A stretch of 32,000 bases of DNA from Candidatus Izimoplasma sp. HR2 (GTDB taxonomy: Bacteria > Bacillota_I > Bacilli_A > Izemoplasmatales > Izemoplasmataceae), in the NCBI GenBank assembly GCA_000753575.1, contig JRFF01000053.1, forward strand, positions 89,641 through 121,640, written 5' to 3'. The notes below the pieces were generated by a model, which saw only the letters and a program-made list of their open reading frames with translations, was not told the DNA's origin and made no database searches. The position numbers and the translations under genes are program-made. Positions within the stretch are counted from its first letter, which is position 1. Every line of letters begins with the position of its first letter. Positions 7,386 through 18,087 of this stretch are shown piece by piece.

Positions 7386-8531
7386 CTAATTATCAAAAAT
7401 TTTTGAAAGCAAACAATCTTTAGAATCTATATCTTGGCTATCTAATCGAAATCCATAACAACATCCAGCTTTACTATTTATATAAGGATGCCTTAAAGAA
7501 TATTTACCTTCTTTTACTCCTGTTTCCATTGCACCAATTACAAGCGGTTTTCCTATAAATTTATTAGAATCTTCCTTAATTTCTTTCAAAAGTGCTTCAG
7601 TCAATCCTGAAGATACTGTTCCAATAGATATTAATTCACCATTTTCGTTGTAAGCGCCAATCTCGATGCTGCCTATCCAATCCATATGTGCTGCTTTTGT
7701 AATTGCATCCCCATTATCATCAAAGTAATTTCAAGCTTCTAGCTCTTTGCCTTCATAATAATAAGTTGGCTTACAAAATCTTAAACAAATTACATCCATA
7801 TCAGCAAGTTCTTTCTTAAATTTAATCGTGTTTCAAGCGGGTCTCTTATTTGGAACTATAAACCCAAGTTTACTTTTTAATACAATTCCTTCTTCTTCCG
7901 CAGCAAACGTATCTGAAAGTAATTGTCCTAAGTCTTTTGTATAAGTTTCTGCAAATTCAACAAACATTTTTTCTTCGTTTGTAGCTTGTTTTTCAAAATT
8001 TTCTTTTATTCCATTTAATAGAACTATTCTTTCTTCAGTTTTTATATTTAATTGCATTTCTTGCGCATAGATTGCGATGTCATGCACATAAAAATATAAT
8101 TTAGAATTAGAATCATTCTCTTGCCGAGCAACTGCTTTTAATGGCAAACAACCCATAATTTTAGTAACTTCATTAGAACCGCCTTTTCTTGAACATATTT
8201 CTCCTATCAAAACAGTTTCAACTGGTAAATACTTATTTAATATTTTTTTTATATGAGGAACATTCCCTAATTTTTCCGATAATAATCCAGTTTTTTTTGA
8301 TACACTCTTACTAAAAAGATAAGAATTGTTCTCATGTTTTTCATAGGAGTAATAATAACCATCCTTTTTAATCTGTGCAACGTATTTTTCATTTAAAAGT
8401 ATCTCATTTTTTGTATGTTTCTTATTCTTTAAGCTTCAAATTTTCATTGGCATAATCATGCATGCTTCTGGATACAATTTGTCTATTTGTTCTCTTGTAA
8501 AATCATTTATTTTAACTCCTTGTAACTCCAT
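7386..8531 (-). CDS. lig: ATP-dependent DNA ligase (381 aa with TGA=Trp)
   Basis: Joins track ORFs 7386..7685 and 7833..8210 plus the N-terminus through TGA at 7731-7733, 7833-7835 and 8436-8438. Motif I is AQIKKDGYY (KxDG), motif III is LIGEI, then EGIVLK and SLRHPY. ATG at 8531 after AGGAGG. Confidence 0.85.
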
Positions 8532-8550: not shown

Positions 8551-9360
8551 TTATATTTCTCCTCTTTTCTTCTTGCAATAATCACATTGACATACTTCTT
8601 CTTGAATTTCTTCTGTCTCTTTTTCAGTTTCTTTAACTTCTTCTTGAACTTTTTCTGTCTCTTTTTCAGATTCTTTAGATACTTCTTCTTTAACTTCTTC
8701 AGACTCTTTGGGTTCTTCATTTTTTTCTTCTTCCTTTGCCATTGCTTTAATAGCATCTATAATTTCTTTTGGTACTTTAGCTTTTTCTTTCTTTGCTTCT
8801 TTATCCATTTCTTCTAAATCATAAATAAAATCACAAATTCCTACTGATAACGCTTCTTTAGGATCCATGTATAATTGTAGGTCTTCTCTATATATTCTAT
8901 TTATAATTTCATTAGAAAGATTACATTCTTTTTGAGTAATTTCTATTAACTGTAAATACATACGATTATATTCTTCGTTAAAATTATGCACTTCATAAGG
9001 AGTACCTACTACTCCCCATTTTGGTGAATGGAATAAGAATGTTGTATAAGGATAAACTACTCTATATCTACCACCTAAATAAATTAACAATGCAGCACTA
9101 CCTACCATACCACTCCCTATAGTTATTACTGGAGTTACACTATTTTTTATAGTTGAGTACAATGCCATTCCATCATAAATACTTCCACCACCTGAATTAA
9201 TATGTAAACTTATAGGTTGTGGTTTAAAAGTACGAGGTCCATTCCTTAACATCTCTTCATCATATCTATTAAGGATATTAATTCTTTCAATTATTTTAAA
9301 TGCAATTTCTTTATTAACATCTCCGAATAGATATATATCTCTTTCAAAGTTAAATTCCAT
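8551..9360 (-). CDS. ClpP-family serine peptidase with E/K-rich repeat tail
   Basis: INSGGGSIYDGMALY, GSGMVGSAALLIYLGG and FLFHSP match the ClpP core. C-terminal KETEKETEEIQEEV repeats end in CQCDYC. Confidence 0.7.
   Translation of the reverse strand: MEFNFERDIYLFGDVNKEIAFKIIERINILNRYDEEMLRNGPRTFKPQPISLHINSGGGSIYDGMALYSTIKNSVTPVITIGSGMVGSAALLIYLGGRYRVVYPYTTFLFHSPKWGVVGTPYEVHNFNEEYNRMYLQLIEITQKECNLSNEIINRIYREDLQLYMDPKEALSVGICDFIYDLEEMDKEAKKEKAKVPKEIIDAIKAMAKEEEKNEEPKESEEVKEEVSKESEKETEKVQEEVKETEKETEEIQEEVCQCDYCKKKRGEI
8594..8700 (-). repeat. 42-nt (14-aa) tandem repeat in the ClpP-like tail
   Basis: The unit acttcttcttgaaNttcttctgtctctttttcagNttcttta starts at 8594 and 8636, with a partial third copy. 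Confidence 0.7.
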
Positions 9361-9414
9361 AATTATCTCCTTTTCTTTATTTAAATAAAATTAATTTATT
9401 CATTTACTATATTC

Positions 9415-9443
9415 ATTATACCAAAATACAAAGAAAAACACAA
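9415..9443 (-). promoter_or_regulatory. extended -10 promoter upstream of the ClpP-like gene
   Basis: TTGTGT-17 nt (ending TGG)-TATAAT on the minus strand. Confidence 0.5.
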
Positions 9444-9477
9444 GGAAATTAGCTTAATTCTATTAAATTCCTTGTGT
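9431..9477 (-). terminator. rho-independent terminator after CDS 9508..9921
   Basis: 10-bp stem acacaaggaa/ttccttgtgt followed by TTTTTCTT on the minus strand. Overlaps the -35 of the next promoter. Confidence 0.6.
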
Positions 9478-12084: not shown

Positions 12085-12471
12085 TTATTTATATAATTTT
12101 AAATGTCCTGTTATTTCATCAATATCACAGTTAAAATCTGGACCTATACCCAGGCAAGTTGCAGTACCTGGTTCAACTTCTGTTCTGCCATCATCCACGA
12201 TCAAAGCGCATGACATCCCTTTGCTCTTGGCTATTTTATATAAAGCTAACAATTCTTCTTCACTATTTACTTGTAAAACTATTTTAGTAAAATCTTCTGC
12301 TAGCCATTTATATGCTGCTGATTTTTCTTTTAATTTAAAAATTGTATCTGTCCTTGATTCTCTTATTTCGTCCAAGAGTGCACCTAATGATGCATGTGAA
12401 ACTTGTGCGGCTAACTTTCCTGGAGACATATTCAAATCTTTTCTAGCAACAATTACTTGTTTCACTTTCAT
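12085..12471 (-). CDS. peptidyl-tRNA hydrolase, Pth2 (archaeal/eukaryotic) type
   Basis: VIVARKDLNMSPGKLAAQVSHASLGAL resembles the PTH2 N-terminal signature. 128 aa. Confidence 0.7.
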   Translation of the reverse strand: MKVKQVIVARKDLNMSPGKLAAQVSHASLGALLDEIRESRTDTIFKLKEKSAAYKWLAEDFTKIVLQVNSEEELLALYKIAKSKGMSCALIVDDGRTEVEPGTATCLGIGPDFNCDIDEITGHLKLYK

Positions 12472-17467: not shown

Positions 17468-17543
17468 TGGTGGATTGAGAGAGATTTGAACTCTCGACCT
17501 CTGGTTCTTCAAACCAACACTCTTCCAACTGAGTTATCAATCC
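17468..17543 (-). tRNA. tRNA-Phe(GAA)
   Basis: Acceptor ggattga/tcaatcc. Anticodon loop ttGAAga. T arm gagag-ttcaaat-ctctc. CCA encoded. Confidence 0.85.
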
Positions 17544-17554
17544 ATATTCATTTC

Positions 17555-17625
17555 AAGACACTAATTTATATACAATCCATATTTGTATGGCTTAGCAGCC
17601 TGTTTTGATTTGCTGTATGTGTCTT
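17555..17625. ncRNA. three-helix structured RNA, copy A
   Basis: Closing stem aagacac/gtgtctt. Hairpins atacaa/ttgtat and ggct-tagc-agcc. Strand not determined. Confidence 0.5.
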
Positions 17626-17645
17626 ATGAATTATTATTTTATATC

Positions 17646-17712
17646 AAGACGCTAATTTTTATCCAATTAAAAGTTGGTCGCTTAGCAGCGGTTGATGTGC
17701 TGTATGCGTCTT
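17646..17712. ncRNA. three-helix structured RNA, copy B
   Basis: Same architecture as copy A with compensatory changes: aagacgc/gcgtctt, ccaa/ttgg, cgct-tagc-agcg. Confidence 0.5.
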
Positions 17713-17776: not shown

Positions 17777-17853
17777 TGGTATGTAGGGAGAGGCTCGAAC
17801 TCTCAAAACTTTGGGTCTAAGCCAAAGATCTCCTCCATTTGGATTACCTACAC
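17777..17853 (-). tRNA. class-I-sized tRNA with anticodon UAG (Leu-type anticodon, no long variable arm)
   Basis: Acceptor gtgtagg/cctacat. Anticodon arm ctttgg-ctTAGac-ccaaag. 4-nt variable loop. T arm gagag-ttcgagc-ctctc. CCA encoded. Irregular D arm. Confidence 0.65.
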
Positions 17854-17881: not shown

Positions 17882-17910
17882 ATTATAACATATCTTTATT
17901 GAGATGTCAA
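17882..17910 (-). promoter_or_regulatory. sigma70-type promoter inside the tRNA island
   Basis: Minus strand TTGACA-17 nt-TATAAT, exact consensus. Confidence 0.7.
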
Positions 17911-18013: not shown

Positions 18014-18087
18014 TGGCAAGGGCACAAGGAATTTAACCTCAATCTTGTGGTTTGGAATCACGTATGTTAACATTACACCATGCCCCT
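18014..18087 (-). tRNA. tRNA-Trp(CCA), atypical
   Basis: Acceptor aggggca/tgccctt, A1-U72, discriminator G73, CCA. Anticodon loop ttCCAaa on a 3-bp stem flanked by mismatches. T loop ttaaatt. D loop lacks GG. Confidence 0.6.

Follow-up and report, generated by a model that had tools for sequence, protein, structure and literature searches.

What are the two adjacent units of about 70 nucleotides (nt) that lie at positions 17,555 to 17,712 of a 32,000-nt stretch of DNA from Candidatus Izimoplasma sp. HR2 (contig JRFF01000053.1, positions 89,641 to 121,640; the whole stretch is called the window here)? The window is an AT-rich, phage-type region that carries 25 transfer RNA (tRNA) genes, 24 called by ARAGORN and one more by Rfam, all of them minus-strand genes within the 12.5-25.5 kb interval, and the two units sit inside this cluster. 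A reading made from the letters of the window (the sequence-only reading) had described them as a tandem pair of three-helix RNAs of a class that it did not recognise. According to the comparisons described below, their sequences place the units among the short-form members of a Y-RNA-like family that is linked to a gene for a Ro60-like protein of the DUF2828 type. We consider it probable that they are Y-RNA-like partners of this divergent Ro60-like protein, that they are released from tRNA precursors, and that they belong to a widespread phage family; the RNA binding and the function of the units are what we infer. Because all of the tRNAs and all of the consensus promoters lie on the minus strand, the RNA of the units would be the reverse complement of the letters that the sequence-only reading had quoted, and the parts of the units are given accordingly:

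17555..17625, minus strand: unit 1, short-form RNA of 71 nt; closing helix P1 formed by 17619-17625 with 17555-17561; CAGCAA at 17610-17615; hairpin a at 17589-17600; hairpin b at 17570-17588.
17646..17712, minus strand: unit 2, short-form RNA of 67 nt; closing helix P1 formed by 17706-17712 with 17646-17652; CAGCAC at 17697-17702; hairpin a at 17679-17690; hairpin b at 17663-17677.

The two units have one architecture, a closing helix and two hairpins each, just as the sequence had been described. Their alignment has 71 columns with 13 substitutions and four gap columns. In P1, the pairing AAGACAC/GUGUCUU of unit 1 corresponds to AAGACGC/GCGUCUU of unit 2 (A-U to G-C), and in hairpin a, which has four base pairs (bp) and the loop GCUA, GGCU-GCUA-AGCC corresponds to CGCU-GCUA-AGCG (G-C to C-G). 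Hairpin b, with a 7-nt loop in both units, is AUACAA-AUAUGGA-UUGUAU in unit 1 and CCAA-CUUUUAA-UUGG in unit 2; its inner three pairs are the same, a fourth is A-U versus C-G depending on the placement of a single gap, and unit 2 lacks the two outer pairs that unit 1 has. The compensatory differences between the units therefore number two, or three if the gap in hairpin b is placed accordingly, and the original claim of compensation in three helices stands for P1 and hairpin a but is gap-dependent for hairpin b. Minimum-free-energy folds of the minus strand show all three helices (z = -2.48 for unit 1 and -2.38 for unit 2), whereas the plus-strand folds are less distinctive (z = -1.4 and -1.5). 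In a simple mutation simulation, two or more compensated pairs between the units arise with P of about 0.006-0.02. As evidence for a selected fold, the comparison of two sequences alone is modest and only suggestive.

The inner hairpins have found no further homologues. A megablast search of the region against GenBank phages gave no match, IMG/VR pattern matches to the inner hairpins were chance matches in coding DNA, and the eight matches of a single metagenome scan included clear family members, but the GCUGCUAAGC hairpin was absent from all eight. Because no orthologues of them were found, hairpins a and b are drawn from two paralogues and fold prediction only. The related phage contig L121, whose DUF2828 protein is 78% identical to that of the window, has one unit, not two, in the same spacer between tRNA-Leu and tRNA-Phe; the ends of this unit are alike and its core is different, and it fills the spacer to within 2-5 nt on each side. 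The presence of a single unit in the same spacer indicates that the pair in the window is a recent tandem duplication, after which the units would have diverged while their base pairs stayed.

The closing helix is a different matter. A repeat scan of the window found that the 5′ end of the minus-strand units recurs at 24.7 and 25.7 kb, and an IMG/VR scan for AAGACRCATACAGCA returned 120 stretches, in many of which the first seven bases recur as their reverse complement 40-200 nt further downstream. Position 6 of P1 covaries perfectly in an unbiased test of public phage contigs: of 70 AAGACAC sites, 41 have GTGTCTT after them and none has GCGTCTT alone, and of 55 AAGACGC sites, 14 have GCGTCTT after them and none has GTGTCTT alone; the upstream control gave 0-3. 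A scan for a 7-bp closing helix, 2-4 nt and CAGCAA found 269 elements, compared with 51 in reversed-sequence controls. The signature of the family is a terminal helix of 7-8 bp with the consensus AGRCNC/GNGYCU, followed on the 5′ side by NNA-CAGCAA as a single strand; in the consensus profile, A-G-R-C-N-C is followed by three nucleotides ending in A and by an invariant CAGCAA. Unit 1 has AUA-CAGCAA, and unit 2 has AUA-CAGCAC, a variant present in 5% of the family. Hundreds of phage contigs carry the family signature, with 3-9 copies per locus or phage and with a bimodal distribution of element lengths (about 50-70 nt and about 110-125 nt), and the module ranges over phages of Izimaplasma (associated), Bacillus, Listeria, Enterococcus, Salmonella and Mycobacterium. 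Throughout this large family, the closing helix is strongly selected. The sequence-only reading had proposed a homologue search with a covariance model. Homologues number in the hundreds and keep the closing helix through compensatory change, where a lack of homologues or uncompensated loss of the pairs would have spoken against the fold. Its description of the covariation as direct evidence for a selected fold is borne out for this helix by the family-wide selection and was overstated, from two paralogues, for the inner hairpins.

Membership of the units in the family was assessed with a covariance model, R1, which was built from 37 short forms of other phages only, has the closing helix as its sole structure and was run with filters off. 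In the window it gives five matches at E < 0.01, all on the minus strand, and the next best match has E = 0.14:

17556-17624, minus strand: R1 match to unit 1, 32.4 bits, E = 3.6e-6.
24597..24694, minus strand: 98-nt element (UAGACACA-CA-CAGCAA...UGUGUCUA); R1 match at 24598-24693, E = 4.5e-6.
24130..24200, minus strand: third short-form element (UAGAUGCG-AA-CAGCAA...UGCAUCUA); R1 match at 24131-24199, 31.8 bits, E = 5e-6.
25591..25699, minus strand: 109-nt element (AGGCAC-AUC-CAGCAA...GUGCCU); R1 match at 25591-25699, E = 1.3e-4.
17647-17711, minus strand: R1 match to unit 2, 22 bits, E = 1.8e-3.

In the tRNA region from 12 to 26.5 kb, these five elements are the only minus-strand intergenic CAGCA sites, and every one has the closing helix. 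The elements recur as a set, in syntenic positions, on contig L121. The element at 24130..24200, which is flanked by tRNA-Gln and by the DUF2828 gene, whose ATG follows after 33 nt, has its orthologous position at 9887-9969 of L121. The element at 24597..24694 has in its core a T-arm-like hairpin, ACUGG-UUCGAUU-CCAGU at 24613-24629, and the L121 orthologue (9371-9460) has ACGGG-UUCGAGU-CCCGU, a compensatory difference. The element at 25591..25699 starts about 16 nt downstream of the transcription start predicted for the promoter at 25751-25723, and its L121 orthologue is at 8945-9100. Read on the plus strand, unit 1 scores 12.9 bits and unit 2 11.2 bits with R1. The tRNAs and promoters, the orientation of the family motif and the covariance model scores all point to the minus strand, and by these sequence features it is the functional strand of the units, not the plus strand that had been quoted. 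The units thus show each feature of the family: the terminal helix, NNA-CAGCAA (as a variant in unit 2), the R1 score and a same-strand DUF2828 gene in the cluster.

No known Rfam family matches the units even at E <= 10, in line with the earlier statement that the class was not recognised. In Rfam (15), no family covers the short forms and none reaches its threshold on any element, including the other copies in the window. We found no paper that defines a CAGCAA RNA family, within an incomplete coverage of the literature, and these RNAs are apparently a large, undescribed family of phage small RNAs. In Enterococcus phage EFDG1 (L209), a box with the consensus GCCRGARCAUAAAGAA precedes each of three elements upstream of the Ro-like gene (7428-7443, 7613-7628 and 7797-7812), and the middle element has the motif variant CAGCGA.

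The core between the two helix strands varies freely and may hold short hairpins, a permuted top half of a tRNA, or a whole tRNA. Short forms have one or two hairpins, and among 243 distinct short forms, 157 contain a hairpin whose loop is 7 nt long; the most frequent of these loops, CUUUUAA (14), CUGUUAA (6) and CUGCUAA (4), look like anticodon loops in sequence. The loop of hairpin b in unit 2, CUUUUAA, is the anticodon loop of the tRNA-Lys(UUU) of the window. The long forms have a T arm, then a 7-bp acceptor-like hairpin and then a D arm, which is the top half of a tRNA with its parts permuted. Applied to 37 non-redundant long forms, RNAalifold arrives independently at P1, the T arm, the acceptor-like hairpin of 7 bp and the D arm; 22 of the 23 pairs have compensatory change, 93.4% of cells are paired (66% in shuffles and 32-45% with partners slid), and 245 cells are changed on both sides, compared with 69 in shuffles. 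A minority of elements (16 cases) enclose a whole tRNA. In the long-form alignment A4, 8 of 37 sequences have G-CCA directly after the strand that matches the 3′ strand of a tRNA acceptor, followed by a short AU-rich linker. By analogy, this encoded tRNA-like 3′ end suggests that RNase P cleavage could open the acceptor-like loop, as reported for M. smegmatis YrlA.

The proposed protein partner is encoded in the same cluster:

22580..24097, minus strand: DUF2828 + DUF7788 gene (Pfam), 505 amino acids; proposed protein partner.

Pfam detects DUF2828, DUF7788 and a weak vWA signal in this protein, and the DxSxS motif of a metal-ion-dependent adhesion site (MIDAS) is invariant (D302, S304 and S306). 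A sequence search against the PDB found no Ro60, and the literature on 'DUF2828' was irrelevant; it took a fold search to see the likeness. In a Foldseek search against the PDB with the AlphaFold2 model (predicted local distance difference test score, pLDDT, 85; predicted template-modelling score, pTM, 0.80), the top nine matches are all Ro60/Rsr, over the full length, with template-modelling (TM) scores of 0.44-0.57 and E = 2e-7 to 3e-4. The matches that follow are isolated vWA domains only, and Ro60/Rsr is the sole full-length structural match. According to this model, the DUF2828 protein has a divergent version of the Ro60-like ring plus vWA fold. Homologues of DUF2828 occur in at least 706 GenBank phage records, where they are annotated as 'Ro-like RNA binding protein' or 'RNA-binding protein', and such 'Ro-like' genes are found in the Felix O1 group, the P100/A511 group, Staphylococcus, Enterococcus and Campylobacter phages, and mycobacteriophages. 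The homologue in a P100-like Listeria phage is Rsr-like by HHpred and was detected in virions (PMC12282133), and the Ro60-like gp130 of Felixounavirus Bas63 counters the Ppl defence system (bioRxiv 10.1101/2024.10.10.617714). In both papers (PMC12282133; bioRxiv 10.1101/2024.10.10.617714), Y RNAs nearby are a matter of speculation only.

The link between the RNAs and this gene holds in both directions of search. In the window, the DUF2828 gene lies 4.9 kb upstream of the units on the same strand, and three further elements lie 33-1600 nt upstream of the gene. Among 120 loci retrieved by the DNA motif only, 19 encode a complete or almost complete DUF2828 homologue (E <= 1e-80) within the retrieved stretch, in most cases a few hundred nt away from the motif. 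Conversely, 71 of 80 loci fetched by DUF2828 homology only (39-47% identity) carry elements (213 on the strand of the gene and 36 on the other, against 13 in reversed-sequence controls), and in 36 of the 80 an element ends at most 200 nt upstream of the start codon. Upstream of the DUF2828 gene, CAGCAA is the most strand-biased 6-mer outside the coding-strand purine bias (135 vs 16). Elements stand beside the gene in all five of the cultured phages examined (Bacillus 2S-4, Listeria LMSP-25, Salmonella SeKF_63, Mycobacterium Tyson and Enterococcus EFDG1). In the complete genome of Mycobacterium phage Tyson, compact elements occur only at 40288-40535, right after the Ro-like gene, and its tRNA array (62-64 kb, 22 kb away) has none; the 25-tRNA region of phage T5 has neither a DUF2828 gene nor an R1 match (T5 20-60 kb). 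The results for Tyson and T5 indicate that the elements are associated with the Ro-like gene and not simply with tRNA arrays. Genes of RNA repair and of tRNA metabolism go along with the system: Listeria phage LMSP-25 has an RtcB 'tRNA-splicing ligase' gene 1.3 kb downstream of the DUF2828 gene (L206 10841-12052), Tyson has polynucleotide kinase and RNA ligase genes (L245 4853-5773 and 9208-10488), and the window has a gene for a PTH2 peptidyl-tRNA hydrolase (12085-12471).

How the units would be made can be read from their surroundings:

17777..17853, minus strand: tRNA-Leu(UAG), upstream neighbour of unit 2 in the same transcription unit.
17468..17543, minus strand: tRNA-Phe(GAA), downstream neighbour; unit 1 ends 11 nt before it.
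17882..17910, minus strand: sigma-70-type consensus promoter (TTGACA, 17 nt, TG-TATAAT), 12 of 12 positions matching.
25832-25804, 25751-25723, 21072-21044, 19814-19786, 17910-17882 and 15164-15136, minus strand: six near-perfect sigma-70 consensus promoters with extended -10 (TG).

The promoter at 17910-17882 would drive one transcript with tRNA-Leu, unit 2, unit 1 and tRNA-Phe, in which the units would be co-transcribed with the two tRNAs. The tRNA-processing enzymes would then free the units, by RNase P at the downstream tRNA and by 3′ trimming after the upstream tRNA; the RNase P cut at the 5′ end of tRNA-Phe would set the 3′ end of unit 1. The paired ends would make the units stable. The terminal helix and CAGCAA would dock on the ring of the Ro60-like DUF2828 protein, as Y RNA helices do on Ro60, and the variable core would be an effector or tRNA-mimic module that engages other partners. 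The six promoters of the window are embedded in a repeat family of about 80 nt, and they split the tRNA cluster into several strong transcription units.

Several points weigh against this proposal. CAGCAA differs from the known Ro60-binding motif of Y RNAs (GNCGAAN0-1G or GGUCCGA), and the DUF2828 protein is only a distant relative of Ro60, with a TM score of about 0.55, no TROVE match in Pfam and no match in the PDB by sequence. Units 1 and 2 sit 4.9 kb from the gene and abut tRNAs, their inner hairpins are without orthologues in our searches, and many family members lie at most 15 nt from a tRNA, which would equally suit a processing role. That Bas63 gp130 is a DUF2828 homologue is deduced from the genus and the gene position. 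The expression, the ends and the binding of family members are, in any phage, what we infer.

Published RNA-Seq data of Listeria phage CKA15 were considered as support for expression and set aside. The most abundant phage transcript, at 26,236-26,727, is discussed there as a possible small RNA or Y RNA (PMC12282133), and no coordinates are given for the other two abundant regions (PMC12282133). The highlighted region is a ROOL RNA, and the cka15 elements of the present family are at 25,289-25,553. The full-length ROOL (RF03087) match is at 2696-3247 of L242 (cka15), corresponding to 26,195-26,746 of the record, and another is at 6461-7012 of L206; these matches score 88-90 bits (E of about 1e-16 to 1e-18), just below the gathering score. 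Because the highlighted region is ROOL and the other abundant regions have no coordinates, we make no claim of expression.

A bolder version of the proposal is that the DUF2828 protein and the CAGCAA RNAs form a modular phage ribonucleoprotein, in which a constant docking module displays interchangeable tRNA parts and acts as a decoy, a sensor-blocker or a repair platform against tRNA-directed or nuclease-based defence. The displayed parts would be anticodon-arm mimics, of which the CUUUUAA loop in unit 2 is an example, permuted acceptor/T/D domains, of which some encode a G-CCA end, and whole tRNAs, and they would engage tRNA-targeting host factors. This version is consistent with the countering of Ppl by Bas63 gp130 and with the packaging of the protein in Listeria phage virions, and we offer it tentatively, as a possibility on the unlikely side.

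The best-placed rival explanation treats the elements as punctuation or processing elements of tRNA operons, in which the helix, bridging the end of one tRNA spacer and the start of the next, and CAGCAA are a signal to a ribonuclease of the host or the phage that orders or insulates cleavage of the polycistronic precursor independently of DUF2828. Distances suit this explanation, since elements lie 0-15 nt from the flanking tRNA in 43 of 132 cases upstream and 52 of 140 downstream, a complete tRNA is enclosed in 16 cases, and units 1 and 2, like the L121 orthologue with its 2-5 nt on each side, fill the Leu-Phe spacer. However, the elements of Tyson follow the Ro-like gene and are absent from its tRNA array, the three elements of Listeria phages LMSP-25 and cka15 are flanked by a protein gene and the DUF2828 gene instead of by tRNAs, the large tRNA array of T5 has none, and 36 of 80 DUF2828 genes have an element at most 200 nt upstream. 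We therefore think a role confined to tRNA processing rather improbable.

The crowding of elements just upstream of the start codon, including the copy in the window that ends 33 nt before the ATG, would also fit cis-regulatory sites, at which the DUF2828 protein or another factor binds its own leader and the tRNA transcripts and controls translation, stability or termination, with no free small RNA. Autoregulation through RNA mimics is common among RNA-binding proteins. However, a locus has several tandem copies, copies also occur downstream of the gene (Tyson and Salmonella SeKF_63) and kilobases off among tRNAs, and the complete, strongly covarying tRNA-like domain of the long forms would be needless for a leader operator; this explanation is, in our estimate, very improbable. 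Finally, decaying tRNA-derived repeats or small mobile DNA with 7-bp terminal inverted repeats and no RNA function, which the tRNA pieces in the cores (T arm and anticodon-like loops) and a tRNA region full of homing endonuclease genes and tRNA fragments might call to mind, can be set aside as extremely improbable, because of the strand bias (213 vs 36, with all R1 matches on one strand), the free covariation of terminal 'repeats' that would otherwise keep one sequence, and G-U pairs that are tolerable only in RNA of that strand, and also in view of a motif conserved across phages of Firmicutes, Proteobacteria and Actinobacteria and of spacers in L121 and the window that differ by the tandem duplication only, with no empty and filled sites with target-site duplications seen.

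Returning to the Y-RNA-like reading, the closest known systems are the bacterial Y RNAs YrlA and YrlB (Rfam RF02553; Chen et al., 2014, PMC4201824) and Yrl1/2 of Thermus phage phiLo (PMC12135203). The family resembles YrlA and YrlB in size (55-130 nt), in the pairing of 5′ and 3′ ends, in a conserved short motif on the 5′ side, and in the presence of one to several copies that adjoin, on the same strand, a gene for a Ro60-type protein of ring plus vWA. The long forms have the same order of parts as YrlA (variable hairpin, T arm, acceptor-like hairpin and D arm) and match RF02553 at 34-45 bits through the T, acceptor-like and D arms, against a gathering score of 69 bits; the short forms, like YrlB and Yrl1/2, are without the full tRNA-like domain. 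However, the motif after the AGRCNC helix is NNA-CAGCAA, not GNCGAAN0-1G or CGAA, and CGAA is absent from both units; the partner is DUF2828, not a Ro60 with the TROVE domain (Pfam); no family member reaches the 69 bits of RF02553, and the units do not match it at E <= 10. Units 1 and 2 also lack the T arm, the acceptor-like hairpin and the D arm. The copy number of the family is higher (3-9 per locus), and its members are often inside tRNA arrays, with some enclosing whole tRNAs. YrlA would be expected within about 4 kb of a TROVE Ro60 gene on the same strand; the units are 4.9 kb from the DUF2828 gene of Ro60-like fold, and other copies are 33-1600 nt from it. The Y RNAs of metazoans and Deinococcus (RF00019, Yrn1) likewise have a terminal helix with a variable loop or effector module and a presumed role as adaptor or regulator of the Ro60 ring; the present family has no sequence similarity to them and no bulged GGUCCGA/UUGACC helix, and its genes lie in tRNA operons and are not Pol III genes.

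In T4, the species 1 and 2 RNAs are stable RNAs of unknown function in a phage tRNA cluster. RNAI, RNAIII, RNAIV and RNA1-3 of T5 (NC_005859) are also small stable RNAs encoded with tRNAs, with paired ends, and some are tRNA-like. However, they have no CAGCAA after their terminal helices and no R1 match, and there is no DUF2828 gene in the region examined; they are not family members. In T5 (L243 10285-13950), RNAIII, RNAI, RNAIV and RNA2H pair their 5′ and 3′ ends, and they form a separate, unexplained class. The likeness to tRNAs themselves is limited to the loop of unit 2, shared with tRNA-Lys(UUU), and to the T, acceptor and D arms of the long forms. A cloverleaf, a T arm and a D arm are all missing from the units, and neither ARAGORN nor the Rfam tRNA model (RF00005) finds a tRNA on either of them, which agrees with their earlier description as something other than tRNAs. 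A reading of the units as odd tRNAs (D-armless or T-armless, with the 'anticodons' AUG and UUU) was rejected for misfit of spacing and want of support by any tool. Plus-strand open reading frames (ORFs) of 88 and 67 amino acids across the units run antisense through tRNA genes and are unsupported, and both units would also allow CAGC to pair with GCUG of hairpin a, an alternative that was not adopted because the family does not conserve it.

Other features of the window touch the tRNA cluster and its surroundings. A tRNA with the anticodon UCA at 25462-25535 (minus strand) is called 'SeC' by ARAGORN and scores 36.6 bits with the Rfam tRNA model. There is no call of tRNA-Trp(CCA) in the tRNA cluster, and the long ORFs contain no in-frame TGA under translation table 11; the UCA-anticodon tRNA may read opal codons or act as a suppressor. 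The 25th tRNA of the cluster, at 18017-18087 (minus strand), scores 46.3 bits with Rfam and was missed by ARAGORN. A 29-nt copy at 20560-20588 is 97% identical to the 3′ part of tRNA-Pro (20402-20430) and is a fragment or pseudogene within the array. The gyrB gene (28555-31492, minus strand) is split into an N-terminal ORF at 30137-31492 and a C-terminal ORF at 28555-29040, with about 1.1 kb between them. In near-identical contigs of the same phage (L122 and L123), a GIY-YIG ORF occupies this gap, and GyrB is intact in L121, at 643 amino acids. The split is probably an intron or a homing-endonuclease insertion; no group I intron is matched there by Rfam at the gathering score.

The Y-RNA-like architecture was already known, and what is new here is the proposed recognition motif CAGCAA and the putative, divergent Ro60-type partner. 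The architecture of the Y RNA type would extend, with a different recognition motif, to a second, divergent lineage of Ro60. Genes of the DUF2828 type occur in model and therapeutic phages, and the family supplies candidate RNA partners for them, where none had been defined. The family provides a signature that can be searched for, namely the terminal helix and CAGCAA, short and tRNA-like forms, and 3-9 copies per phage, and, by this signature, structured RNA genes account for many of the 'empty' spacers or spurious small ORFs of phage tRNA arrays. The role of the phage Ro60-like protein, including the reported anti-Ppl phenotype, becomes directly testable. If the modular ribonucleoprotein proposed above is real, it would represent a new and widespread class of RNA-based counter-defence and could explain the 'stable RNAs of unknown function' in phage tRNA clusters.

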